The notes below the pieces were generated by a model, which was given only the letters and a program-made list of their open reading frames with translations, did no database searches and was not told the origin of the DNA. From an uncultured Clostridia bacterium (GTDB lineage: Bacteria > Acidobacteriota > Blastocatellia > UBA7656): a stretch of DNA of 64,000 bases. The position numbers and the translations under genes were made by a program. The DNA lies in assembly GCA_964615905.1 (NCBI GenBank), contig CAZTUB010000002.1, positions 154,538-218,537 on the forward strand. The letters run 5' to 3'. Below are positions 36,259-51,690 of the stretch, one piece after another (position 1 is the stretch's first letter; each line of letters opens with the position of its first letter).

Positions 36259-38691
36259 TTATTCGTGACGCAAAGCCTCCATCGGGTCAACCCTTGTCGC
36301 GCGGCGAGCCGGAACGTAGCAGGCCACGAGCGCCACGACCGCGAGCAGGAGCGAGACGCTCGTAAACGTGACGGGGTCTGTCGCTGAGATTCCGAATATC
36401 ATCTCCGACATCACGCGCGTCAACGCAAAGGCCCCCGCGAGCCCGAACGCGACGCCCGCGATTATCAAGGTCGCCCCCTGTCCGACGACGAGCTTGAATA
36501 TGTCGCGCGGGCTGGCGCCTAACGCCATGCGAATGCCGATCTCGTGCGTCCGCTGCGCGACCGCATAAGAGATCACCGCGTAGATTCCTACGGCTGCCAG
36601 CAGCAGCGCTATCAGCGCAAAGATTGCGAGCACCCAGGTCATCAGCCGTTTCGTCGAGCTGCGCTCGTCTATGACCTGGGTCATCGTCTTGATGTCGGAG
36701 ATCGGCTGGTCCGGGTCGAGCCCGGCGACGTAACCGCGCACCGCCGCCGCCACCTGCTCGGAATCCGACTCCGCGCGGATTATAAGCATCATCGAGCGCG
36801 CGGGATTCTGCGCGTAAGGTAGATAGACGTACGGCTCGGCCGGATCGTCCAGGTCTTCGTTCATAACATTTGCCACGACGCCTATGACTTCGGGCGGATG
36901 ATCGTTGTCAATCACGATCCGCTGCCCAATCGCGTCACGGTCGGCAAGAAAGCGGCTGGCGAAGGCTTCATTGACCAGAATGACGCGCGACGACTGCTCG
37001 TTGTCCTGTTCGGTAAAGAGTCGCCCCCTGCGGAGCGGCGTGCCGATGGCGGCGAAGTATTCGTGCGTGACTACGCGTGTTTGAGTTAGCGGCTGCGAGC
37101 CCTTGGGGTAAGGCGGCTGGCCCGCGATTTGAAAGGAGCTGATCTGGTTTGTGCCGCTCATCGGCAGCAGGTTGATCGCCCCGGCAGAGACTACGCCGGG
37201 AGACGCTTTTACACCCGCGAGCAGTTCACTATAAAAATTGATTCGCTGTTTCGCCTCAGGGTACTTGTCGCGCGCAAGGGCAACCTTCATGCTCACGACG
37301 TTGTCAGGGTTGATTCCGAAATCGGTTCGGAATATTTCGATAAAGCTGCGGATCATAAGCCCCGCGCCTACGAGCAAGACTAGCGACAGCGCGACCTCTG
37401 AGACTACGAGCGCGCTCCGCAGCCATGAGCGCGACGCTTGCCCGGCAGCAGCTTTACCGCCCTCTTTCAACGCGTCGTTGAAGTTTGTCCTTGTCGCCTG
37501 CCACGCAGGCACAAGGCCGAACAGTATGCCCGTAAAGACGGACATAATCAGCGTAAAGACCAGCCCCGACCGGTTGATCGCAAAATGGCTCCAGCCGGGT
37601 ATAAATTTAGAGAAGTCTTCCGGGATGCTGTTGGCCAGCAGTTCGACGCTCCAGATTGAAATCACAAACCCTAAAGCTCCGCCTGCAAGCGCGAGCAACA
37701 CGCTCTCTGTTAGAAGCTGGCGGGCGAGACGACCGCGAGTCGCTCCGAGCGCCAACCGCACGGCGATCTCCTTTTGACGCGACGAAGCGCGAATGAGCAG
37801 CAGGTTTGCGACGTTTGCGCAGGCGATCAGCAGTACGAACAGGACCGCTCCGCTGGCTATCGGCAGACCCATACGAGCGCCGCGCGTCGCATCGGCGTTT
37901 AGCGAGACTACGGCTGCGGTCCTGCCTCCATTCGTATCGGGGTAGATTTGCTGCAAGCGGTCGGCGAGGGCTCGAATCTCCGCGTCGGCCTGCTCAATAG
38001 CGACGCCGGGTTTGAGCAAGCCTAAAACCTGCAAGTAGTGGTTGCCGCGATTTGCGGCCGCCTGCTGATCGAATACAAGCGGCGTCCACAGCTCACCGCC
38101 GTTGTAAGGGAACTGAAAATCCTCCGGCATCACTCCTATCACGGTGAAGCTCTTGCCGTTGAGCGTGACAACCTGGCCCAGGACGTTCGGGTCGGAACCG
38201 AAGCGGCGCTGCCACAGGCTATGTTTTAAGACAACTACCTGCTCGCGGCCCGCGCCGCTCTCGTCACGCTGGAACGTGCGGCCAAGCGCCGCTTTCACTC
38301 CGAGCGTGTCAAAGAAACCCGCAGAGACTTCATAGCCCGCAAACCTTTCGGGCCTGTCGCCGCCGGTCAGATCGAAGTCGCGTGTATTTATCGCCGCAAA
38401 CTCTTCGATGGTGCTGCTCTGCTCGCTCCAATCTTTGAGGTTGCCGGGCGAAACCGACCCGCGCCTGATGCCGAACTCGGGGTTGCGCTCCCAGATTATC
38501 ACCAGGCGGTCCTGGTTGGGGAACGAGAACGGCCGAAGCATCAGCGTGTCGACCGCGCTGAAGATCGTCGTGTTCGCGCCGATGCCCAGCGCAAGCGTTA
38601 CCACAATCACGAAAGTAACGCCCGGATTTTTCAACAGCATTCGCACGCCGTAGCGCAGGTCTTGACCGAGGGTTTCCAGATAATTGCCCAT
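36259..38691 (-). CDS. ADOP-type duplicated ABC (MacB/FtsX-like) permease
   Basis: QDLRYGVRMLLKNPG, LLIACANVANLLL, EIAVRLALGA, QRTHEIGIRMALGA and PARRATRVDPMEALRHE motifs. Confidence 0.92.
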   Translation of the reverse strand: MGNYLETLGQDLRYGVRMLLKNPGVTFVIVVTLALGIGANTTIFSAVDTLMLRPFSFPNQDRLVIIWERNPEFGIRRGSVSPGNLKDWSEQSSTIEEFAAINTRDFDLTGGDRPERFAGYEVSAGFFDTLGVKAALGRTFQRDESGAGREQVVVLKHSLWQRRFGSDPNVLGQVVTLNGKSFTVIGVMPEDFQFPYNGGELWTPLVFDQQAAANRGNHYLQVLGLLKPGVAIEQADAEIRALADRLQQIYPDTNGGRTAAVVSLNADATRGARMGLPIASGAVLFVLLIACANVANLLLIRASSRQKEIAVRLALGATRGRLARQLLTESVLLALAGGALGFVISIWSVELLANSIPEDFSKFIPGWSHFAINRSGLVFTLIMSVFTGILFGLVPAWQATRTNFNDALKEGGKAAAGQASRSWLRSALVVSEVALSLVLLVGAGLMIRSFIEIFRTDFGINPDNVVSMKVALARDKYPEAKQRINFYSELLAGVKASPGVVSAGAINLLPMSGTNQISSFQIAGQPPYPKGSQPLTQTRVVTHEYFAAIGTPLRRGRLFTEQDNEQSSRVILVNEAFASRFLADRDAIGQRIVIDNDHPPEVIGVVANVMNEDLDDPAEPYVYLPYAQNPARSMMLIIRAESDSEQVAAAVRGYVAGLDPDQPISDIKTMTQVIDERSSTKRLMTWVLAIFALIALLLAAVGIYAVISYAVAQRTHEIGIRMALGASPRDIFKLVVGQGATLIIAGVAFGLAGAFALTRVMSEMIFGISATDPVTFTSVSLLLAVVALVACYVPARRATRVDPMEALRHE

Positions 38692-38873
38692 CCTGACCTC
38701 CCGAACTGTCTCTTTATCTTCTCTACGCCATCCCTGTGGCCAAGGTTGCGCCGCAGGCCGAAAAAATAGACCGGCCGCAGATTGCTGTCGCGCGGCGATC
38801 ATAGAATCAGGCAGCTTCAAGCCTCGCGCCTCGTCGCGTGTGATCGATACGGGTATGCTCTTGTTTTAATCTG

Positions 38874-39623
38874 TTAGAAGCCGATCACTGTATAGAGCGC
38901 CGCGCCGATAATGCCGCCGATAATCGGGGCGATCACCGGTATCCAGAAATAGCCCCAATCGGCAGCGCCTTTGCCGGCGATAGGCAGGAGCGCATATGCC
39001 AGGCGCGGCCCAAGGTCGCGCGCAGGGTTGATGGCATAACCGGTCGGGCCTCCCAGTGACAGGCCTATGCTCCACACGAGACAGCCGACAAGGATTGGTT
39101 GCAGACCGTGGCTGAAGACGACCGAGAGGTTTACATCGCCGGGCGTGGCAAGTTTTTGCGCATTGGCCGCGATTGCCAGCACGCCGAAAAGGAATAACGC
39201 CGTGCCGATCACTTCCGAGATAAAGTTAGAGAACGGGCGGCGGATCGCAGGCCCTGTTGCAAAGACCGCTAGCTTTACACCGGGGTCTTCCGTCTCGGCC
39301 CAGTGCGGCAGATATGCTACCCAAACGACCACGGCGCCGAGAAACGCTCCCACAAGTTGCGCAAGCAAATAACCCGGCACCTCCGACCAGGGGAACGCGC
39401 CGATGGTAGCAAGCGACACGGTCACGGCCGGGTTGAGGTGCGCGCCGCTTATCCGCCCGACGCAGAAGACTGCGATGATGACGGCAAGCGCCCAGCCGGT
39501 CGTGATTGCCATCCACCCTGCGTTCTGGCCTTTCGATTTATTGAGCAAGACGTTGGCAACGACCCCGTCGCCCAGAATTAACAGGATCATCGTCCCGACA
39601 GCTTCAGCAAGATAGTTTGTCAT
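38874..39623 (-). CDS. glpF: MIP family glycerol uptake facilitator
   Basis: Two NPA motifs (HLNPAVT; AINPARD) and glycerol-type GPTGY. Confidence 0.9.
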   Translation of the reverse strand: MTNYLAEAVGTMILLILGDGVVANVLLNKSKGQNAGWMAITTGWALAVIIAVFCVGRISGAHLNPAVTVSLATIGAFPWSEVPGYLLAQLVGAFLGAVVVWVAYLPHWAETEDPGVKLAVFATGPAIRRPFSNFISEVIGTALFLFGVLAIAANAQKLATPGDVNLSVVFSHGLQPILVGCLVWSIGLSLGGPTGYAINPARDLGPRLAYALLPIAGKGAADWGYFWIPVIAPIIGGIIGAALYTVIGF

Positions 39624-40941: not shown

Positions 40942-41787
40942 TCATTTTGCCGTCGAGTCACCCCGGCCCGTATGCATCGCGACGGCCTTCCACGCGCCGT
41001 CCGTGTTGATAAAGGTAAGGGCATAAGAAGCTGTGGTGCGAGCGTTGTTATCGCTGCCGGGCTTATCGCCTCGCACAATTGCGGTGTCGCCGTACAGGTC
41101 TATTGTCGCCCGACCCGTGTTGAGCTTTGGATAGTTCAGCTTTCCTGTCCTTAACTCGTCGAGCAACTGCTGCCGCGTCAATTGCTCTCCTCCCCCGTGC
41201 GTCCAGACGAAGCTTTTATCCGTCAGCGATTCTACGCTCTTTAGATCGGCGGCCAGCATAGCTTTATGAAAAGCGGCCTCAGTTGCCGCCACTTCTTTCT
41301 TGTCTTCTTCCGCGGACCGCCCCATCTTTGTCGCCTGCCAGTTCACGACTTGCCATATACCTTTGCGCTTGAGAAAAGTCCCGGAGTTGAGATATCTCGC
41401 GGTGCTGGTCCTCCCGTCTCTCTCTGTCGTGGCCACAAGGCGGAAAGCCACTATCGCCGTATCGCCGTATTGCTGGATGCGAATATCTTCGGCGCCGTAA
41501 ACGGTTGTCGGAGCGCCGGGCGTCGGGGCAGACGGCGAGCGCAGCCCGCGCATAATGTCGGCCTTGCCTGTTCGCCTCCCGGCTGAGCCTGTGTAGATAA
41601 GGTCTTCAGCCCAGAAGCGGTCGTGAATCGCGGCATCGTTGCGCGAAGCGCCGTCCAGGAACTCTTTTAGCAGCTTTGTCAGCTCGGCCGCATCCGGTGA
41701 CGACTGCGCGTGCAGCCCGAACGCAAGCATCAATATCACGACCGCAGATGAAAGGCCTCGTCTCATATCATCCCTCCTTCTTTGCAT
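40942..41787 (-). CDS. Exported tandem NTF2-like (DUF4440) protein
   Basis: Signal peptide and two repeats containing YGDTAIV. Confidence 0.82.
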   Translation of the reverse strand: MQRRRDDMRRGLSSAVVILMLAFGLHAQSSPDAAELTKLLKEFLDGASRNDAAIHDRFWAEDLIYTGSAGRRTGKADIMRGLRSPSAPTPGAPTTVYGAEDIRIQQYGDTAIVAFRLVATTERDGRTSTARYLNSGTFLKRKGIWQVVNWQATKMGRSAEEDKKEVAATEAAFHKAMLAADLKSVESLTDKSFVWTHGGGEQLTRQQLLDELRTGKLNYPKLNTGRATIDLYGDTAIVRGDKPGSDNNARTTASYALTFINTDGAWKAVAMHTGRGDSTAK

Positions 41788-41865: not shown

Positions 41866-41894
41866 TTGACAGGCTCGCCGCGCCTCTGTATTAA
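41866..41894 (+). promoter_or_regulatory. Sigma70-type promoter of the sulfate transport operon
   Basis: TTGACA-17 nt-TATTAA, about 175 nt upstream of the sbp start. Confidence 0.65.
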
Positions 41895-42068
41895 TTTGTG
41901 AGTGTACGCCAGCCAGCCTGTAAAACCCGGTTGGCAGCAGTCCGCCTCAAGACGAGAATCCAGGCTTTCAATGAAGCACGCCCTTTAAGCTCAGGCAGTA
42001 CTTTATCCCGATTTACCTTAACCTAAGCCGGTCGCAATAATCGAAAGATCACACGGAGATCAACTCAG

Positions 42069-43133
42069 ATGAGAATAGTGAGAGATAGCCTTATAAAAAC
42101 CCTGGCGGCGGTATCTTTATCTTTGGCTGTACTGGTTATCCCCGCGTTGCTTCAAGGCTGCGGCGGCGGTGCTGCGCCGGGCGACAGGGTGACGCTGATA
42201 CTTGGCGCGTACACCACGCCGCGCGAGGCTTACGGCAAAGCGATACTCCCCGCTTTTCAAAAGTACTGGAAAGAGAAGACCGGTAAGACCGTCGAGTTCC
42301 AGGAGTCCTACCAGGGCAGCGGCGCTCAATCGCGCGCGATAATCGGCGGGTTCGAAGCCGACATCGCCGCGCTCTCGCTCGCAGGCGACATAGACAAGAT
42401 CGCCGAGGCCGGGCTAATCACTCACGATTGGAAAAGCAAGCCTAACGGCGGGATGGTTTCGGATTCGATAGTCGTAATCGCCGTCCGAGAAGGCAACCCT
42501 AAGGGGATAAAAGACTGGCCCGACCTCACCCGGCAAGGGCTGAACATACTGACGCCCGACCCGAAGACGTCGGGCGGCGCGATGTGGAATATCAACGCCC
42601 TTTACGGCGCTGCGCTGCGCGGGTACGCGGGCGTTCCCAAAGATGACACGGCTGCTGCCGAGGAGTTTCTCAAGAGCGTATTTCGCAACGTCTCGATCAT
42701 GGATAAAGGCGCTCGCGAATCGATTACAAACTTTGAAAAGGGCGTAGGCGACGTTGCCTTGACCTACGAGAACGAAGTGCTCGTAGGGCGCGAGTCGGGC
42801 CAGAAGTACGAGTACGTCATCCCGCGCTCGACCATCTTGATAGAAAACCCTGTTGCGATCATCGACAAGAACGCCGACAAGCACGGCGTTCGCGAAGCGG
42901 CCGAAGGCTTTATCGAGTTCCTGTTCAGCAAAGAGGCGCAGCGAGCCTATGCCAAACACGGGCTCAGGCCTGTCGATAAGGATGTGGCGCGCGAAGTCGA
43001 GGCCCAGTACCCGCGCGTCGAAGACCTGTGGAAGATAGATTATCTCGGCGGCTGGGACAAAGTGATCAAAGAGATATACGGCCCGCAGGGAATCTATACG
43101 CGCATGTACGAGAGCTTGCACACATCAAGATGA
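42069..43133 (+). CDS. sbp: Sulfate/thiosulfate ABC transporter substrate-binding lipoprotein
   Basis: Lipobox LQGC, SYQGSGAQSRAIIGG, TPDPKTSGGA, GDVALTYENE and ILIENP motifs. Confidence 0.9.
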   Translation: MRIVRDSLIKTLAAVSLSLAVLVIPALLQGCGGGAAPGDRVTLILGAYTTPREAYGKAILPAFQKYWKEKTGKTVEFQESYQGSGAQSRAIIGGFEADIAALSLAGDIDKIAEAGLITHDWKSKPNGGMVSDSIVVIAVREGNPKGIKDWPDLTRQGLNILTPDPKTSGGAMWNINALYGAALRGYAGVPKDDTAAAEEFLKSVFRNVSIMDKGARESITNFEKGVGDVALTYENEVLVGRESGQKYEYVIPRSTILIENPVAIIDKNADKHGVREAAEGFIEFLFSKEAQRAYAKHGLRPVDKDVAREVEAQYPRVEDLWKIDYLGGWDKVIKEIYGPQGIYTRMYESLHTSR

Positions 43134-43999
43134 GCGCCAAACCTGTAGAGCTAAGACCCGAAAAGACCCCCGCCGCCCGCAATGTCGTCAGGCCGTGGGG
43201 CAGGTGGGGATTGCGCGCGGTCGCCATCAGCTATCTCGGATTGATGATCGTTCTGCCGCTTTCGGCGATCTTTGCCAAAGGGCTCGAGGCCGGGCTGACA
43301 GGGTTCGTCGCAGACATAACGAGCCCCATTGCGTTTGCCGCGCTGAAATTGACCCTTGTGACGGCGATCATCACCACCGTTATCAACGTGGTTATGGGGA
43401 CGCTGACGGCATTCGTGCTGGTGCGGTACGAGTTTCCGGGGCGCGGGCTGTTAAACGGGCTGATCGACATGCCTTTCGCCATACCGACTCTTGTGACAGG
43501 CGTGATGCTTGTCGTGCTCTACGGCCCGGCGGGTGTGCTTGGCGGCTGGTTCGAAGCGCGCGGAATAAAGATCATCTTCGCAACTCCGGGGATAGTCCTT
43601 GCGCTGCTGCTCGTAACATACCCGTTCGTCGTTCGCGCGATCCAGCCAGTCCTTATGGATATGCAGAGCGATCAGGAAGAGGCCGCCTATACGCTTGGGG
43701 CGACGAAGTGGATCGCGTTTTATCGCATAGTGCTTCCGACGATCATGCCTGCGGTTATCACGGCGGCGCTGCTCACGTTCGCCCGCGCCATCGGCGAGTT
43801 CGGGTCGATAGTGATCGTTGCGGGCAACATACCGGGGCTGACGCTTACAGCGCCGGTCCACGTCTACGGCCAGATCGAATCGCAGAACGTGCGAGGCGCA
43901 AGCGCGATGTCCGTTCTGTTGCTGGCCATCTCGTTCACTTTGATGATTACAATCGACTGGATGCAGCGGCGCAGAGAGGTCTCCGATGCAACAGGCTGA
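43130..43999 (+). CDS. cysT: Sulfate ABC transporter permease CysT
   Basis: IDMPFAIPTLVTG, QEEAAYTLGA and FARAIGEFGS motifs. ATGA-coupled start at 43130. Confidence 0.9.
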   Translation: MSAKPVELRPEKTPAARNVVRPWGRWGLRAVAISYLGLMIVLPLSAIFAKGLEAGLTGFVADITSPIAFAALKLTLVTAIITTVINVVMGTLTAFVLVRYEFPGRGLLNGLIDMPFAIPTLVTGVMLVVLYGPAGVLGGWFEARGIKIIFATPGIVLALLLVTYPFVVRAIQPVLMDMQSDQEEAAYTLGATKWIAFYRIVLPTIMPAVITAALLTFARAIGEFGSIVIVAGNIPGLTLTAPVHVYGQIESQNVRGASAMSVLLLAISFTLMITIDWMQRRREVSDATG

Positions 44000-44858
44000 A
44001 CCGTCAAGCCCGCTCGAATTCGGATTGATGTCGGGCAAGCCCGCGCGGGTCAAAAAGAAGCACAGCCCCGTCGAATGGCTCTTGATAGCGGTGGTTGTGA
44101 TCTATGCCTCCGCGCTGCTGATCGGCCCGCTCGCGGCCGTTTTCTGGGGAGCTTTAGAGAAGGGGGCGGGCACGTTTATAGCCGAGGTCACTTCGCCGAA
44201 CGCGTTGAACGCGCTAAAGCTGACGCTGATCGTGGGAGTGTGCGCTACGGCGATAAACGCGGTCTTCGGTCTTTTGGTGGCGTGGGTGCTTGTCCGCGAC
44301 AACTTCCGGGGACGGCAGCTAGTCAACGGGCTTGTCGATTTGCCGTTCGCCGTTTCGCCGGTCATCGCAGGGCTGATGCTGATACTGCTATTCGGGCGGG
44401 GCGGGTGGTTCACACCGCTCACGGACGCGGCAGGCATAAAGATGGTCTTTGCGCTGCCGGGTATGCTTATCGCCACGACCTTTGTGTCCATACCGTTCGT
44501 CATTCGCGAAGTCATGCCGGTGCTTTCTCAGATAGGCACGCAACAGGAGAGCGCGGCATATACGATGGGGGCGAGCGCGTGGCAGACGTTCTGGCATGTC
44601 ACGCTGCCTTCGATCCGCTGGGGCCTCTTTTACGGCATCTCGCTCACGCTTGCGCGCACGCTGGGCGAGTTCGGCGCAGTGCTTGTGGTCAGCGGCGGGG
44701 TGAGCGGGCTGACCGAAACCTCGACGCTGTTTATCTTCCGCTCGCTTGACGACCGCAACTACGTCGGAGCCTATGCGATGGCTATGGTGCTGGCTCTGAT
44801 CTCTTTCAGCATCCTGATGTTTATGGAGTTTATAAAAAAGCGCACGCAGGATAGCTAG
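43986..44858 (+). CDS. cysW: Sulfate ABC transporter permease CysW
   Basis: DLPFAVSPVIAG, FVSIPFVIREV and ARTLGEFGAV motifs. Confidence 0.9.
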   Translation: MQQAEPSSPLEFGLMSGKPARVKKKHSPVEWLLIAVVVIYASALLIGPLAAVFWGALEKGAGTFIAEVTSPNALNALKLTLIVGVCATAINAVFGLLVAWVLVRDNFRGRQLVNGLVDLPFAVSPVIAGLMLILLFGRGGWFTPLTDAAGIKMVFALPGMLIATTFVSIPFVIREVMPVLSQIGTQQESAAYTMGASAWQTFWHVTLPSIRWGLFYGISLTLARTLGEFGAVLVVSGGVSGLTETSTLFIFRSLDDRNYVGAYAMAMVLALISFSILMFMEFIKKRTQDS

Positions 44859-44894: not shown

Positions 44895-46463
44895 ATGAAG
44901 CTTGAAAAGGTATCATTTTACTCTCTATTGTTTCCGGCGCTCGTTCTGATTTTGCTTCCGAGCGCGGTCGCGCTGGCAAATGACGGCGGCAACTCCCCTA
45001 AGGCGGCAGCCGCGAGCGCAAAGGCCGCGTCTCAAAACAGTAGCGGCCAACCGGGAGCCAAACCTGAGAGCGGATCAGAGGATCAGGTCAAGCAGCTTGC
45101 CGAAAAAGTCGAACGGCTACAGGCTTTGATCGAGCAGCAGCAGCGGGCGCTTGCTGCGCTTGAGCGCAGGCTTGAGGGCAGAGACGCGAAGCCAGAGCCC
45201 GCCTCGCTCGACACAAGAGTGGCGACGAGCACCGGGGTCGAGCCGTCCACAGAGCCTGTCACTGCAACAAAACCTACAGATGCTGCCCGCGCGCAGAGCC
45301 AGCCCGCCGCGCCTGACAAACCCGCGCTTCTTGCAGGGTGGGACAAAGGCCGGGCCTTTTTGCGCTCAAGCGACGGCAGTTTCGAGACGTTCATAGGCGG
45401 CTACGGCCAGCTCGATTTTCGCGGCTACCAGTCCGGCCCCGTCGCCCCGGCGAACACTTTTCTTCTGAGGCGCGCGCGGCTCATCGTCGAAGGAAAGGTC
45501 CAGCGCTATTACGACTTCAAGATCGAAGGCGATTTTGCCGACAGGACCGGCATCATCCTCCGCGACCTGTTCGTCAGGGTCCACCGCATAGACGAACTCC
45601 AGCTGACCTTCGGCCAGTTCCGCGTGCCTTACAGCCAGGAAGAGATTCGCTCGGACGCCGTGCAGGATTTTGTCGAGCGCTCGCTGGTCAACAACCTTGC
45701 GCCCAGCCGCAGCCCCGGCATACAGGCGTCGGGCGTCGTGGGCGGGGGCGTCTTTGAATATCAGGTCGGCGCGTTCAACGGCAAAGGGCTGCTGGTCCCG
45801 AACGATAACGACACGCCAGAAGGCGCGATACGTTTGCGCTTCACGCCGTGGCGTAACGGCAGCGCCTTCTGGCTCAAGGGGCTCAGCTTCGGCGGGGCGT
45901 ACACGCAGGGTCGAAGCCGGGGCGGCCTGAGCGTTATCGGGCAGACCGAAAGCCGCAGCGTCACTTTCTACGAGGCAGACAGGATCAACGGCAAGGTCCA
46001 GCGCGCAAACGGCGAGCTGACATGGATGCTCGGGCCCGCCGCCATTCGCGCGGAGTACGACCAGACAAACCAGGAGCGGCTGAGAATGGGCGCGGGCGGG
46101 ACAGACCTGCCGGGAGTTGTCGCCAAAGGCTACATGGCGCAATTCACTTACCTGTTGACCGGCGAGACCAAGCCCGAAGCGGGCGCGGTCGTTCCCAAAC
46201 ATAGCCTGTTTGAAGAAGGCAGCGGCACAGGGTTAGGCGCGTGGGAGGTGAAATTCCGGTACTCGAATCTTCAAATCTCCAACGGCACGCCGAAGGCGAA
46301 CCGCGCAGAGACTTTCTATTTCGGGCCTAACTGGTATCTGAACCGCTTCGTTCGTTACACGCTCGATCTTGGCGTGGAGCGGTTCAAAGACCCTTTGCGC
46401 ACGCCCAACCCCGGAGACAAGAATTTCTTCGTAGTGCTCAGCCGTGTTCAGATCGTCTTCTAG
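44895..46463 (+). CDS. OprO/OprP-like anion-selective outer-membrane porin with N-terminal coiled coil
   Basis: Signal peptide, coiled coil, FLLRRARL, GQFRVPYSQE, FVERSL, beta-strand alternation and terminal Phe. Confidence 0.8.
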   Translation: MKLEKVSFYSLLFPALVLILLPSAVALANDGGNSPKAAAASAKAASQNSSGQPGAKPESGSEDQVKQLAEKVERLQALIEQQQRALAALERRLEGRDAKPEPASLDTRVATSTGVEPSTEPVTATKPTDAARAQSQPAAPDKPALLAGWDKGRAFLRSSDGSFETFIGGYGQLDFRGYQSGPVAPANTFLLRRARLIVEGKVQRYYDFKIEGDFADRTGIILRDLFVRVHRIDELQLTFGQFRVPYSQEEIRSDAVQDFVERSLVNNLAPSRSPGIQASGVVGGGVFEYQVGAFNGKGLLVPNDNDTPEGAIRLRFTPWRNGSAFWLKGLSFGGAYTQGRSRGGLSVIGQTESRSVTFYEADRINGKVQRANGELTWMLGPAAIRAEYDQTNQERLRMGAGGTDLPGVVAKGYMAQFTYLLTGETKPEAGAVVPKHSLFEEGSGTGLGAWEVKFRYSNLQISNGTPKANRAETFYFGPNWYLNRFVRYTLDLGVERFKDPLRTPNPGDKNFFVVLSRVQIVF

Positions 46464-46515
46464 GGAGAACTTTCTGAAATTCGTTCTCGGAAATCGGACT
46501 GGATGAGGTAATCTA

Positions 46516-48381
46516 TTGAGCAATACGATTATGCAAGACCTTGTCAGTCGAAAACCGAGCGCAGTGCTGCGCGATCTCAACGTCTTGGTTCCCGCCGAAG
46601 AGGTGGCGGCAGCAGAGCGCATATTGCCGCTTGCGGTCAGCCTGAGCGGCTCGGCAAAATCGACCATCTCGCTGATAGGCGTGACGCCTATCGGGCGCGA
46701 CGTGTCGCTCAGCGAAGGCGCAATCTCGGCCCAGCGCTTGCGCAACGACCTTGAGACTCTTGCGAGCGAAAGCCCGCGCATAAACCGGCTGGCCGGCAGC
46801 TTCGTCTCTCATCAACCCTGGGAAGACATCGAAGCGTTGATCGACGAGCGCATGCAGGACAACGACCTGCTGCTGCTCGCCTGGCAGCAAGACAAGACAT
46901 ATTTTCAAGCGGACCTGGCGGAAGTCTTGCGCGACCCTCCCTGTAATGTCGCGGTCGTAAACCCGATGGTCGACCCGCGCGACATACGCCGGATATTGCT
47001 GCCGGTTCGCGGCGGCCCTTACGCGAACCTGTCGCTCCAGCTGGCGATACGGCTCGCGCGGTCTGCCAACGCCGAAGTCACGCTCCTTCGCGTGGTCTCA
47101 AGCGACGACGACCCGATGAGCCAGGTGCTCAGAGAGAAGTTCACCGGGCTTTCGGACGCCTTCCCGGAGATCACCACCGAGCTACAGATCGTCGGCGACG
47201 CGGGAACGGCGGTCGTCCGCGCGCTGAAAGATCATCAAGCGATTATTCTCGGAGCGAGCGCCGCGCACGACGGCCCGCCCATAGGGTTGATGGCCAGCAT
47301 AATCCTTCAGCGCAAGGACGTGACGACGCTGCTCGTAAAGACCAAAGAGCCGTTTCGCCTGCCCGCTTCGACCGCGCGGCGGGCCAACCTGCCCGTGCTC
47401 GTGCGCGTAGAGAAATGGTTCGCCGAGAATACATTTCACAGCAAAGAGTTTTCAGACATCGACCGCCTCATCGACTTAAAGAGGCAGCAGAACCTTCGCA
47501 TAAGCCTCGGTCTTCCCGCGCTCAACCAGGAATCGACCATAGGAAACCTGATTCACTCGATCAAGCGAAAGCTCATGGACGACGCGCCGCTCCTTGATGA
47601 GATCGTGTTGATCGACGGCAACTCGACAGACTTCACGCGGAAGATTGCCGCAGAGCTTGGCGTCCCCCCATACATCCATCAAGAGATACTGCCGAGGCTC
47701 GGCAGCGTACGAGGCAAGGGCGAATCGCTGTGGAAAAGCCTCTACCTTTTGAAAGGCGATCTGATCGTCTGGCTGGACACGGACATCGTGAACCCTCACG
47801 CGCGAATCGTCTACGGCATACTTGGGCCGCTGTTGATGAATTCGCACATACAGTACGTCAAAGGATTTTATAAGCGGACGATCAGGTCGAGCGGCGAAGT
47901 TCTCAGCGCCGGAGCGGGCACGGTGACTGAGCTTCTGGCGCGGCCGATGATAAACCTCTTCTTCCCGGACCTGTCTGGGGTGATAGAGCCGCTCGCGGGT
48001 ATTTACGGCGGGCGGCGCTCCGCGCTCGAACAGGTCCCGTTCTACACAGGCCCCGGAGTCGAGGCAGGGTTGCTGCTCGACTTGCTTGATAAATTCGGGT
48101 TGAAGTCTTTAGCTCAGGTCGACCTTGAGGATGTAGAGTATCGCAGCCAGGATGAGCGCGCCTTTGGTAAGATGTCGTTTGCGATCTTGCAGGTCTTCGC
48201 GCAGCATCTGAAGCAGAAAGGTTTGATGGACGCGGGGGCGCAGATGGAGCGAACCATGAAGCGGCTGCGCGTTGAAGATGACCGCTTCTACCTGGAAGAG
48301 ATTGACGTTCACGAACAACAACGCCCGCCGATAATCGAAGTGACGGAGTATCGCGGTCGCTACCGCCCGCGACTTTCGTAA
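46516..48381 (+). CDS. gpgS: Fusion of two USP-like domains to glucosyl-3-phosphoglycerate synthase (GT-A)
   Basis: N-terminal USP-like segments (RILPLAVSL; RRILLPVRGGP...LAIRLA). C-terminal LPALN..TIG, IDGNSTD, GKGESLWKSL, DTD, YVKGFYKR, GTVTELLARP, EPLAG. Start is uncertain (TTG 46516 or ATG 46531). Confidence 0.82.
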   Translation: MSNTIMQDLVSRKPSAVLRDLNVLVPAEEVAAAERILPLAVSLSGSAKSTISLIGVTPIGRDVSLSEGAISAQRLRNDLETLASESPRINRLAGSFVSHQPWEDIEALIDERMQDNDLLLLAWQQDKTYFQADLAEVLRDPPCNVAVVNPMVDPRDIRRILLPVRGGPYANLSLQLAIRLARSANAEVTLLRVVSSDDDPMSQVLREKFTGLSDAFPEITTELQIVGDAGTAVVRALKDHQAIILGASAAHDGPPIGLMASIILQRKDVTTLLVKTKEPFRLPASTARRANLPVLVRVEKWFAENTFHSKEFSDIDRLIDLKRQQNLRISLGLPALNQESTIGNLIHSIKRKLMDDAPLLDEIVLIDGNSTDFTRKIAAELGVPPYIHQEILPRLGSVRGKGESLWKSLYLLKGDLIVWLDTDIVNPHARIVYGILGPLLMNSHIQYVKGFYKRTIRSSGEVLSAGAGTVTELLARPMINLFFPDLSGVIEPLAGIYGGRRSALEQVPFYTGPGVEAGLLLDLLDKFGLKSLAQVDLEDVEYRSQDERAFGKMSFAILQVFAQHLKQKGLMDAGAQMERTMKRLRVEDDRFYLEEIDVHEQQRPPIIEVTEYRGRYRPRLS

Positions 48382-48412: not shown

Positions 48413-50284
48413 ATGTCTATTGTCCTGGACCAGATAACAAAACGCTACGGCAACCAGCTCATCGTCGATAGGGTTTCGCTCGAAGTATCGGACGGGGAGC
48501 TGTTCGTGCTGCTGGGCGCATCGGGCAGCGGCAAGAGCACGATCCTCAGAATGATCGCGGGCCTTGTAACGCCCGACAGCGGGCGTATACACCTTCACGG
48601 GCGCGACGTTACTGAGCTTCAGCCGCAACAGCGCGGGACCGGTTTTGTCTTCCAGAACTACTCGATCTTCCGTCACATGAGCGTCGCGGAAAATATCGAG
48701 TTCGGCTTGAAGATAAGAAAGATGACCGCCGCCGACCGAAAACAGCGCCGCGAGAGATTGCTCGACCTCGTAGGGCTAGGCGGGCTGGGCAATCGTTACG
48801 CGAGCCAGCTTTCGGGCGGCCAGCAGCAGCGCGTCGCGCTCGCCCGCGCGCTCGCATACGAGCCGGGCGTGCTGCTTCTAGACGAGCCTTTCGGCGCGCT
48901 CGACGTGAAGATTCGCGCGCAGCTGCGCCGCAGCCTCAAAGAGATTCAACGAAACCTCGGCGTCACCACGATACTAGTCACACACGATCAAGAAGAGGCG
49001 TTCGAGCTGGCCGACCGCATCGCCGTTCTTGAGCGCGGCCGGTTGCTCGAAGTCGGTGAAGGCGAGGCGCTATACTCGCGCCCGCGCTCGCTGTTTGTCG
49101 CGACCTTTCTGGGAGCGGGGACAGTCCTCGTAGGCCACGCGGACAAAGGGCAGGCGCGGTTCGGCCCTCTGTCGATGCCCATACCCGATACTGTGCCGCA
49201 CGAAGACGGGGCGCAGGTCCAGTTGCTCTTCAGGCCGGAGCAGGTCACGTTGAGCGAAGAGAAGCCGCCTGATGGCGCGATGGTTTTAGGGCAGGGCACG
49301 ATCATCGAGCAGAGCTTTACGGGGTCGAGCCAGCGAGTGCGGCTGAGAGTGCCGCGCATAGCGGCCACGCGCCAGGTCGCTCCCTCGGTCCCGTTTGGTG
49401 AAGAGGGCTTGCTCATAGACGCTATTGTGCCGCCGGGCCTGGAACTCTATACCAAACCGCTATGGGTTTCTATACGCGGCTGGCATATTCTCAAACAGCC
49501 GCCGCCGCGCCTTATGGTCTTTGATAACGGCTCGGAATCGAGCGCGACGCTCGGCATGGCTCGCTGGCTGGTCGAGCGGCTGCGGGCTTCGGCCACACTA
49601 CTCACGGTCGCAGAGAGCCCCGAAGCGGCCGAGCGCTTGCGCGAAAAGCTAAAACAGCGACAACAGCAGACAGGGCTTACAGATGCCGAGCTGAGAATCC
49701 GATTCGGCGACGCCGCAGAGCAGATAGCCGCTGAGCAGAACGAGACGCTTTACGAGGTGATAATGCTTGCGCCGAAGATCAAACGATTCTCGGTGCAGGA
49801 CAGGCGCACGGACGGGCTCGGCACGACCACTGCAAAGGTGTTGAAGCACGCGGAAGTGCCCGTGCTCCTGGTAAAAGGGGCAGAGCGCGAGGTGCGGCGC
49901 ATATTGATCTGCACGGCGGCGGGCGAGCCGGGCAAAAGCGATGTGAGGGTGGGAGGCCGTCTCGCGCGGCGGCTTGGCGCGGCGGTGACGCTGCTTTATA
50001 TCACCAAGAACACCTTAGAGCCGGGCAGCCTTGCGCGCACGCATCTTGATCGCGCGGTCGCTACGCTCAGGGCGGGCGATATAAACGGCGAGGTGCGCGT
50101 GCGCGAGGCGGCGGCCCCGGCCGACGGCATACTTGCCGAAGCGAGCGAAGGCGATTACGACCTGATAGTCGTCGGCGGCCACGTCCCAAAATCGCGCTCG
50201 GTCTTTCGCATAGACAACGTGACCATGCAGGTCATGACAGGGGCCGACCGCCCGGTGCTGGTCGTGCCCACGGCCGATAGTTAG
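48413..50284 (+). CDS. cysA: CysA-type ABC ATPase fused to two C-terminal USP domains
   Basis: [30 protein letters not shown] and LDEPFGALD, then TOBE-like region and two USP repeats ending in PVLLV / PVLVVP. Confidence 0.85.
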
Positions 50285-50351
50285 CCGATAGTTAAATTTA
50301 TGAGGATTGAGGGCCGCGCCAGTCGGGCCTGTCTTCGCAACCGGCTTTCAT

Positions 50352-51248
50352 ATGAAAGATGATCGCGACACGAACTCCGCCCGGTCCTCAGTCCTCAACC
50401 CCCAGTCCTATGCTCTAAGTCTTACTTTCAATAGCCGAGCCAACAAGAAATTCGGGGTGGGGCTGATGCGGGCATTCGGCGGGGCCATCATCTTCTCGCT
50501 CCCCATGCTTATGACGATGGAGATGTGGTACCTGGGTTTCTACATGGCTCCCGAAAGATTCGCTCTGTTTAGCGCGCTCATAATCCCGCTGCTTGTCGGG
50601 CTTTCACACTTCCTGGGGTTCGAAGAGACATTCTGCTGGCAGGATGACATTATCGACGCGTTCGTAGCGTACGCCGTGGGGTTCGTCACTTCGGCTGCGA
50701 TCCTGTTCCTGCTCGGCATACTTGGGCCGGGCATGTCGCCGGGCGAGGTCATCGGCAAGATCGGCTTGCAGGCCGTATCGGGAAGCATAGGCGCGTTGCT
50801 TGCCCAATCCGAGCTTGGGAGCGACAAGGAAGAAGAACACGAGAAGATATGGGAGGCGGGCTATTTTGGCGAGCTGTTTCTCATGTCTGTGGGAGCAGTC
50901 TTTCTGGCTCTCAACCTCGCGCCGACCGAAGAGATGATACTGATCGGGTACAAGATGACCCCGTGGCACGCAACGGCGCTTATCATATTCTCGCTCGTAG
51001 TGATGCACAGCTTCGTTTACATGGCCGAGTTCGGAGGGCAGGCGTCGATTGCCGAGGGCGATTCTGCGTGGGGCGTCTTTCTGCGCTTCACGGTTGTCGG
51101 CTACGCTATGGCGTTGCTGATAAGCTTCTACATACTATGGGTTTTCGGCAGGACCGATGACGTGGCATTTGTCGAAACCATTATGGCGGTCATAGTCCTG
51201 AGCTTTCCCGCTGCGGTAGGCGCAGCGGCGGCGCGATTGATCTTGTGA
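50352..51248 (+). CDS. TIGR02587-type integral membrane protein
   Basis: RAFGGAIIFSLPMLMTMEMW, LAPTEEM and FPAAVGAAAARLIL. Paired with a TIGR02588-type gene. Start uncertain. Confidence 0.82.
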   Translation: MKDDRDTNSARSSVLNPQSYALSLTFNSRANKKFGVGLMRAFGGAIIFSLPMLMTMEMWYLGFYMAPERFALFSALIIPLLVGLSHFLGFEETFCWQDDIIDAFVAYAVGFVTSAAILFLLGILGPGMSPGEVIGKIGLQAVSGSIGALLAQSELGSDKEEEHEKIWEAGYFGELFLMSVGAVFLALNLAPTEEMILIGYKMTPWHATALIIFSLVVMHSFVYMAEFGGQASIAEGDSAWGVFLRFTVVGYAMALLISFYILWVFGRTDDVAFVETIMAVIVLSFPAAVGAAAARLIL

Positions 51249-51261
51249 GAGTGGAGGGTCG

Positions 51262-51690
51262 ATGCGAGAGCGACCGAATAATTCGGGCGGCAAGGACCGT
51301 GACCGGGACATAAGCAGAAAAACGCCCTTTTTGGAGCTTGTTGTCGCCGTGATAGGTCTTTTGCTCATAGCGGCAACCATGGGCTTTATGGTTTATAGAG
51401 CCGTGTGGGGCAGCCAATCGCCGCCCGACATAGTGGTCACTATAGATTCGATACAACCGGTCAGCAACGGCTACCTCGTAAACATCAATACGGTCAATAA
51501 CGGCGGCATGACCGCGCAAGGGCTGACCATAGAAGCCGAGTTGAGCAGCAACAGCGAGAGCGTCGAGACGAGCGAGATCACCATCGAGTACCTGCCTTCG
51601 TATTCGGAACGAAAGGGCGGAATTTTCTTTACAAACAACCCGGGGGATTTCGAGCTGAAAGTCCGCCCTAAAGGTTACGAGCAACCCTGA
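51262..51690 (+). CDS. TIGR02588-type protein
   Basis: TM helix, PPDIVV, N.GG.TA, YLPSYSERKGGIFF and GYEQP motifs. Confidence 0.8.
   Translation: MRERPNNSGGKDRDRDISRKTPFLELVVAVIGLLLIAATMGFMVYRAVWGSQSPPDIVVTIDSIQPVSNGYLVNINTVNNGGMTAQGLTIEAELSSNSESVETSEITIEYLPSYSERKGGIFFTNNPGDFELKVRPKGYEQP

Follow-up and report, generated by a model that had tools for sequence, protein, structure and literature searches.

Why should a glycosyltransferase of the kind that makes the precursor of a stress solute be encoded between the subunit genes of a sulfate importer? The question is raised by a gene in a 64,000-nucleotide stretch (the window, below) of contig CAZTUB010000002.1, from the genome of an uncultured bacterium of the Blastocatellia (Acidobacteriota; assembly GCA_964615905.1). 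The gene, which we call USP-GpgS, occupies positions 46516 to 48381 of the window (621 amino acids when read from a TTG codon; this and all other features lie on the forward strand unless stated otherwise) and encodes a fusion of two universal stress protein (USP) domains with a catalytic domain of glycosyltransferase family 81 (GT81), to which GpgS (glucosyl-3-phosphoglycerate synthase) and MpgS (mannosyl-3-phosphoglycerate synthase) belong. It begins 52 nt after the gene for an OprO/P-type porin (44895-46463) and ends 31 nt before cysA (48413-50284), all three on the same strand, as a preliminary description of the window had reported; the further statements of that description, namely that two USP-like domains precede a GpgS-type glycosyltransferase, that the gene is embedded in a sulfate ABC operon and that GpgS has no known role in sulfate uptake, agree with what we find here. 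The arrangement recurs in related genomes of a single family, the gene is in use, and the CysA encoded next to it carries a tandem USP module of its own. The most favoured explanation, set out below, is that the enzyme is made together with the importer and that both respond to a common signal.

The identity of the enzyme family is certain, and the exact reaction is less so. Residues 297-610 match the profile for glucosyl-3-phosphoglycerate synthase, NF010496 (PRK13915), with 316.2 bits against a cut-off of 262, and the GT-A catalytic domain of GpgS/MpgS type, as placed by this profile, by PDB matches and by Foldseek, spans positions 47398-48351. The best solved relatives of the domain are Rubrobacter MpgS (3F1Y, 201 bits) and M. 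tuberculosis GpgS (about 174-175 bits). A Foldseek search with the C-terminal half of the predicted structure returned template-modelling (TM) scores, relative to the target, of 0.92 to 3KIA (Rubrobacter MpgS) and about 0.90 to 4DDZ and 4Y6N (mycobacterial GpgS), with E values of 1e-22 to 1e-30. The nearest solved relative, 3F1Y, accepts both GDP-mannose and NDP-glucose as donors, so the donor of the window enzyme cannot be called from its sequence.

The N-terminal half of the protein is modelled as two USP folds. Pfam recognises Glycos_transf_2 and one short Usp match (residues 157-208, 28.5 bits, cut-off 24), and a sequence-only search of the N-terminal 290 residues against PDB and NCBIfam gave no match. 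In an AlphaFold model built from a 78-sequence alignment (predicted local distance difference test score 85.7), this half forms two alpha/beta domains, and the Foldseek alignment of the two with the tandem USPs UspE (4R2J) and Rv2623 (3CIS) extends across about 300 columns (E about 1e-9, TM relative to the target about 0.6); because the sequence-only USP signal is almost invisible, the assignment rests on the fold. Domain 1 (residues about 20-150; 46573-46965) was delimited from the secondary structure of the model and from Foldseek, and domain 2 (residues about 157-277; 46984-47346) contains an invariant LLPVRGGP loop, of which P163, R165 and G166 are unchanged across the 78 sequences. The ATP-binding loop G-x2-G-x9-G-[ST] of the UspFG/MJ0577 class is missing from both domains: the corresponding region of domain 1 reads ...LLLLAWQQDKTYF... 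and is free of glycine, and domain 2 has a degenerate G-A-S...I-G loop (G246-A-S-A...G257-L-M-A-S) in which the second glycine is missing and the spacing is wrong. The USP loops of CysA likewise lack the canonical ATP motif. We rejected a recent duplication linking the USP pair of GpgS with that of CysA, given that the two share only a 48-residue local match (35% identity, E 2e-5).

The gene probably starts not at the TTG but at the ATG at 46531, as judged from the sequence, because this is where USP-GpgS orthologues begin and because two of the five codons from the TTG to the ATG differ between the window and a 96%-identical relative, L157; the protein would then have 616 amino acids and the gap to the porin gene would be 67 nt. 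The intergenic stretch between porin and gpgS (46470-46517, with GAGG at 46506-46509) differs at one of 48 nucleotides from L157/L158, although the synonymous-site divergence (dS) of the flanking genes is about 0.38. It shows no conservation in other genera and no significant RNA fold relative to shuffled sequence (z 0.63), and it may be a protein-binding or translation-control site. Between the window and L157 (dS 0.38) the ratio of nonsynonymous to synonymous substitution rates (dN/dS) is 0.061 for the whole gene (USP part 0.066, glycosyltransferase part 0.052), and pairs inside genus g7 give about 0.09. These low values indicate that USP-GpgS is in use and under strong purifying selection.

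The active site retains its core and differs at its periphery. We mapped it onto M. tuberculosis GpgS with residue roles taken from PMC2581804 alone, in which the DXD motif, an Asp134-Lys114-Glu232 network and contacts of the Val186 main chain and of Thr187 with the acceptor carboxylate are described. The window protein keeps D421-T422-D423 (the DXD motif), K401 (Lys114), E516 (Glu232) and V470-T471 (Val186-Thr187), and the Thr187 equivalent is kept in 115 of the 116 homologues compared. Replaced are Glu54 (Q338), Ser81 (G368), Arg185 (T469), Tyr229 (P513), Arg256 (V540), His258 (Y542) and Asn260 (S544). At the positions of the second metal ligand (His258) and of the donor-pocket residues Glu54 and Tyr229, most homologues have His, Glu and Tyr, and the window and L157 have Tyr, Gln and Pro; the His258 equivalent is Ala in G171 and Gln in L123. 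The weight of the missing histidine is uncertain, because the active Rubrobacter MpgS also has no histidine at the aligned column.

How far these changes extend can be read from the two clades of homologues. The replaced sites are about 94-97% conserved in the Chloroflexota-type clade and variable in the Blastocatellia-type clade (clade A, below), in which Arg256 has become Val in 34 of 38 sequences. This last change is not tied to position in the operon, because a stand-alone copy in G101 has it too; the operon-embedded copies of G198 and G189 retain all of the listed residues except Arg256. Among the deeper members of clade A, P0040 and P0045 have lost the DXD motif or Glu232. P0040 (56% identity; locus L125, 8001-11072) has lost both the DXD motif (VEPEI) and the Glu232 equivalent. 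The gene for a sulfite-oxidase-type molybdoenzyme (Oxidored_molyb plus Mo-co_dimer) lies 85 nt past P0040, a second and independent sulfur-related neighbour within the clade. Other Blastocatellia families (L015-L024) encode a separate protein of about 474 amino acids that matches the GT81 domain alone, at about 32% identity, and may be the stand-alone GpgS/MpgS-type enzyme of those families.

The transporter looks, from its sequence, like a real sulfate importer and the only recognisable one in the cell. The periplasmic sulfate-binding protein (SBP, of Sbp/CysP type; 42069-43133) reaches 243 bits with TIGR00971 (cut-off 155.5) and matches Salmonella Sbp (1SBP) and Xanthomonas Sbp (5UM2) with E of about 1e-66. 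The sulfate-ligand positions of Salmonella Sbp are Asp11, Ser45, Ser130, Gly131, Gly132, Ala173 and Trp192; by this list six of the seven would be kept, the segments GSG, SGG and GAR being conserved. Thr stands at Asp11 in the window protein, the contact there being through the main chain; the exception is Trp192, which makes a hydrogen bond to sulfate in the Salmonella protein and is Tyr, within the motif TYENE (42741-42755, residues about 225-229), both in the window and in each of five relatives examined from the family, a family-wide trait. The permease CysT (43028-43999 as the longest open reading frame; as for L001, translation probably begins close to where the SBP frame ends) reaches the equivalog profile TIGR02139 with 273 bits (cut-off 246). 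The permease CysW (43986-44858) reaches TIGR00969 with 306 bits (cut-off 240), and its 306 bits with the CysW equivalog profile are under the cut-off of 329. The porin matches PF07396 (Porin_O_P, 109 bits) and has the same position in most operons of the family. CysA, of 623 amino acids, is an ATPase with C-terminal tandem USP domains (ABC_tran 126 bits; Usp 69 bits in two stretches) and scores 317 bits with TIGR00968, under the cut-off of 342.75.

We found no second sulfate-type ABC set in this 98.7%-complete genome, in which cysA is the only ATPase gene of the single set, and no SulP; the genome does encode Sat, a CysH-type reductase and sulfite reductase. The preliminary description had considered that the transporter substrate might not be sulfate. 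The profile scores, the Sbp ligand positions that seem to be retained, the single ABC set, the lack of SulP and the presence of the assimilation genes all disfavour that suggestion, and we discarded it as a leading view.

The arrangement is not confined to this genome, a point that the preliminary description had proposed to settle by synteny. In a search of 301 Blastocatellia genomes, full-length USP-GpgS was present in eight, all from one family. Full-length CysA with two USP domains is restricted to that family, where about 40 of the 53 genomes have it; other Blastocatellia families have an ordinary CysA of about 360-450 amino acids. The usual operon of the family is SBP-cysT-cysW-porin-cysA(USP), with the porin gene directly before cysA. 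USP-GpgS stands directly upstream of cysA in nine contexts, on at least five branches of the CysA tree: the full order SBP-cysT-cysW-porin-USP-GpgS-cysA(USP) is seen in G000, G041, G156, G198 and G171 and on metagenome contigs L123 and L124, the short metagenome contigs L157/L158 show porin, gpgS and the next gene, and in G189 the gpgS-cysA pair persists with the permease genes elsewhere. The copies in the recurring order in G041, G156, G198 and G171 have 65-71% protein identity. All eight genomes with USP-GpgS have the USP-bearing CysA, against 40 of 53 in the family; by hand calculation the probability of this by chance is about 0.09, which is not significant, and the genomes are phylogenetically non-independent.

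A history of the gene can be proposed from these data. The CysA tree follows the genera, with gpgS-bearing operons scattered over at least five lineages; between genera GpgS has about 70% identity and CysA about 66%. In the GpgS tree these Blastocatellia copies form one clade, nested beside Thermoflexales sequences. A decayed remnant of USP-GpgS lies between porin and cysA-USP in G204 (L014, G204:C115, about 1205-1843 of the locus), where an open frame of about 104 amino acids joins the end of USP domain 1 (LLLLPW...) to the start of the glycosyltransferase (LVDLKKRQELRI...) and then runs out of frame. Because the lineages are scattered, a remnant survives and GpgS has diverged to an extent similar to CysA, the simplest reading is that the gene was inserted once, long ago, at the porin-cysA junction and was afterwards lost many times and now and then moved elsewhere.

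Two irregular sets of loci were seen in the family. In four genomes of genus g6 (L137, L138, L140 and L143) cysA-USP stands apart from the genes for the permeases and the porin, behind a gene whose secreted product has about 230 amino acids. In L036 (G198:C10) the SBP, CysW, porin and CysA frames are each split into at least two tblastn pieces, with gpgS intact; the splits could be indel errors of long-read assembly or early decay of the operon.

Outside the Blastocatellia the fusion has a different setting. A protein search returned more than 100 full-length homologues, and we fetched 80 loci from species-representative genomes, nearly all of them Chloroflexota; databases name the Chloroflexota fusions only 'glucosyl-3-phosphoglycerate synthase'. 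These proteins share with that of the window the three-domain architecture (41-47% identity from end to end), the invariant LLPVRGG loop in the second USP domain and the lack of the ATP-binding glycine motif. Their gene clusters have the form GT4, USP-GpgS and His_Phos phosphatase, to which a second GT4 and a GH63 may be added: a GT4 gene lies directly upstream in 62 of the 80 loci, a His_Phos (GpgP-like) gene is adjacent in 30, in nearly all cases immediately downstream, a second GT4 gene occurs in 36 and a GH63 gene in eight. Such surroundings are what one would expect for a real glycosyl-glycerate pathway. The Chloroflexota genes differ in never lying in a sulfate ABC operon (0 of 80) and in their conserved catalytic sites, relaxed in the Blastocatellia clade, and their partner genes are absent from the genome of the window. 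An independent link of USP-GpgS to an anion ABC transporter in other phyla was also sought among the 80 loci and rejected: the CysA-like matches cover the generic ABC domain only and are not adjacent.

In the window, gpgS is most likely co-transcribed with the importer genes. This would follow from the gene layout: we found no terminator-like site in the 52-nt and 31-nt gaps on either side of gpgS, cysA must be expressed with cysTW, and the gap of 31 nt is too small for a promoter. A promoter-like site (TTGACA-17 nt-TATTAA, 41866-41894) about 175 nt upstream of the SBP start is the likely, putative operon promoter; a consensus promoter scan also gave weaker sites at 41931 and 42012, and Rfam returned no credible RNA element or riboswitch in the operon leader or the intergenic gaps.

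We therefore arrive at the following account, to which we give about an even chance of being right as a whole. The product of the gene is a homologue of the GT81 glycosyl-3-phosphoglycerate synthases (GpgS/MpgS type), with two USP folds that lack the nucleotide motif ahead of the catalytic domain. It would have been inserted between porin and cysA in the ancestor of the family, kept in some lineages, lost in most and relocated in a few, and it would be read on the importer message from the site at 41866-41894. Whenever the sulfate operon is expressed, the enzyme would make an anionic glycosyl-(phospho)glycerate that contains neither nitrogen nor sulfur. Because both the enzyme and CysA carry similar degenerate tandem USP modules, the two are probably under one common post-translational signal. 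There is precedent for control of a transporter by a USP, in that Rv2623 acts on the ABC transporter Rv1747 (PMC5549992). A more elaborate version is a long shot: the USP modules of GpgS and CysA would pair, docking the enzyme on the ATPase, one ligand (a sulfur-status adenine nucleotide such as adenosine 5'-phosphosulfate or 3'-phosphoadenosine 5'-phosphosulfate, or a phosphorylated metabolite) would gate import and synthesis together, and in the window lineage the remodelled pocket (H258Y, Y229P, E54Q, R185T, N260S) would make a product other than glucosyl-3-phosphoglycerate that needs no phosphatase.

Several observations weigh against this account. The enzyme of the window lineage has replaced metal-, donor- or acceptor-binding residues of M. 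tuberculosis GpgS (the five changes just listed), and L157 has all of the changes of the window plus K114R. The genome contains no GpgP orthologue (a profile built from 30 Chloroflexota GpgP-like neighbours gave generic matches of at most 43 bits, two of them to secreted proteins), no HAD-IIB mannosyl-3-phosphoglycerate phosphatase (no match to TIGR01486) and no orthologue of the Chloroflexota GT4 partners, for which the profiles again gave generic matches; the canonical glucosylglycerate pathway therefore cannot be completed on paper. The GH63 partner profile likewise gave generic matches, and a 'GH63-like' match on C5 is a trehalase-type protein. About 30 of the 40 family operons have no USP-GpgS, and the congeners G101 and G123 carry it beside a phoH/ybeY cluster, their operons having no porin; the transporter does not need the gene. 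Within the 3' end of gpgS (48308-48335) there is a weak promoter-like site, the gpgS-cysA gap is 100-150 nt in other genera and could there hold a promoter, and some relatives have hairpins around gpgS, so that co-transcription may not hold in every genus. Our literature search found no link of GpgS to USP, none of glucosylglycerate or other glycosyl-glycerates to sulfur or sulfate, and no known reason for glycosyl-glycerate synthesis to track sulfate uptake. The coupling of anion uptake to solute synthesis that the preliminary description had suggested is plausible, but it concerns a gene that the transporter can do without and that most genomes of the family lack, the porin gene being followed directly by cysA.

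The same observations can be read in other ways. The gene may have landed once between porin and cysA and may ride on transcription of the operon with no link to sulfate, its scattered retention being slow loss; we consider this unlikely. It would account for the repeated losses, including the remnant in G204, for the other locus in G101 and G123, for a transporter that is complete without the gene in most of the family and for a native context of the fusion in other phyla that has nothing to do with sulfate. It fits less well with an exact position kept over 30-35% protein divergence in at least five lineages, or with the gpgS-cysA pair of G189, which stayed joined when it was parted from the permease genes; the strong purifying selection tells us that the gene is used, yet is no proof of a link to sulfate. 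If, instead, catalysis had been lost, the protein could be a USP-bearing adaptor or sensor that modulates the CysA next to it, and the varied residues at His258 (Tyr in the window and L157, Ala in G171, Gln in L123), the K114R of L157, the loss of DXD or Glu232 in P0040 and P0045, the want of a phosphatase partner in the genome and the adjacency of cysA-USP in every embedded case would all be expected. The window protein nevertheless retains the DXD motif, Lys, Glu and Thr, the Rubrobacter enzyme is active with no histidine at the aligned position, so that this residue is not obligatory in GT81, and dN/dS is as low in the glycosyltransferase domain as in the USP part; a purely regulatory protein is, in our judgement, very unlikely.

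The divergent residues might also signal changed chemistry, with the GT81 enzymes of the operon-embedded Blastocatellia clade, and most of all that of the window lineage, having given up glucosyl-3-phosphoglycerate as product and using another donor or acceptor (for example a sulfo-sugar as donor, or as acceptor free glycerate or a sulfonated or sulfated compound), in which case a glucosyl-3-phosphoglycerate phosphatase would be superfluous and the product would be linked with the supply of sulfur. This would suit the contrast between the two clades at these sites, with about 94-97% conservation in the Chloroflexota type and variability in clade A (Val for Arg256 in 34 of 38), the presence of E54Q, S81G, R185T, Y229P, H258Y and N260S in the window and L157 despite a dN/dS of 0.05 in the glycosyltransferase domain, the missing GpgP and HAD-IIB phosphatases, and the molybdoenzyme gene that adjoins the clade-A relative in L125. 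Against it, the Val-Thr contacts to the carboxylate, the donor-network Lys and Glu and the DXD motif all persist; the embedded copies of G198 and G189 have changed at Arg256 alone among the listed residues, and R256V, found also in the stand-alone G101 copy, is unlinked to operon position; and phosphate binding by Arg185, Arg256 and Asn260 is a presumed role. The preliminary description had proposed a different acceptor, such as a sulfolactate-type compound: the active-site changes and the missing phosphatase lend slight support to the general idea, but we rejected sulfolactate itself, there being no ComA in the genome, and the operon encodes no sulfotransferase. All told, a change of substrate is a decidedly unlikely explanation of the locus.

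The flanks of the operon hold further genes. A TIGR02587/DUF2391 membrane protein (50307-51248; TIGR02587 314 bits, cut-off 184) is encoded 22 nt after cysA and is followed, after a gap of 13 nt, by a TIGR02588-like partner protein (51262-51690; 91.6 bits, under the cut-off of 95). The pair follows cysA-USP in this genome only; it is not in L001, L123 or L124, and relatives have an HhH-GPD glycosylase gene or others. Upstream, on the opposite strand, lie genes for a MacB/FtsX-type permease (36259-38820), an aquaporin of the MIP family (38874-39623) and a tandem DUF4440/SnoaL-like protein (40942-41787); the presence of a water-channel gene near a solute-related operon may or may not be meaningful.

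Set beside known systems, the window protein resembles the GT81 enzymes of actinobacteria (GpgS of M. tuberculosis and M. hassiacum, of the Rv1208 type, 3E25, 4Y6N and 7P5L; the dual-specificity MpgS/GpgS of R. xylanophilus, 3F1Y) in its GT-A fold, with TM scores of 0.90-0.92 and 32-35% identity over about 300 residues. It differs from them in about 290 extra N-terminal residues that form the two USP folds, in having Tyr, Pro, Gln, Thr and Ser at His258, Tyr229, Glu54, Arg185 and Asn260, and in its location in a sulfate-uptake operon rather than in a solute or methylglucose lipopolysaccharide (MGLP) context, with no recognisable GpgP in the genome. TeaD is the USP protein of the operon for the ectoine transporter TeaABC. 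Like it and like the Rv2623/Rv1747 pair, the locus has a tandem USP fold (Rv2623 being a Foldseek match) encoded with or fused to transporter parts, CysA here carrying one; Rv2623 and TeaD are free-standing and bind ATP through the canonical glycine motif, whereas the modules described here are motif-less and are fused to an enzyme and an ATPase. With the classical cysPTWA and sbpA-cysTWA operons the locus shares an SBP, a CysT and a CysW that reach sulfate subfamily or equivalog cut-offs and, probably, six of seven Sbp ligand positions, and it differs from them in the OprO/P-type porin gene, the glycosyltransferase gene, the two C-terminal USP domains of CysA and the replacement of Trp192 by Tyr. 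The fusion itself is already known, widespread yet unstudied; what is new is its genomic setting, here with a divergent active site.

Little is understood of how the stress solutes glucosylglycerate and mannosylglycerate are regulated, and we found no published study of a USP-fused first enzyme, although the fusion is very common in Chloroflexota and present in Acidobacteriota. The Blastocatellia locus provides a second, unrelated setting for it, in which it is flanked by the subunit genes of a sulfate importer and the ATPase of that importer has the same kind of USP module. This conserved embedding beside a USP-fused CysA was unexpected, and it gives a concrete handle on the role of these USP modules. 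The changed periphery of the active site, under strong purifying selection, is a test case for substrate specificity in GT81, and even as a mere passenger the gene would illustrate cleanly how an accessory gene can be kept here and lost there while the rest of its operon stays fixed. Should the USP modules of the two proteins share a signal or touch, they would form a compact natural system for learning what nucleotide-motif-less USP domains sense, and would reveal how the uptake of a nutrient is coordinated with the synthesis of a solute in the abundant but little-studied Acidobacteria of dry soils.

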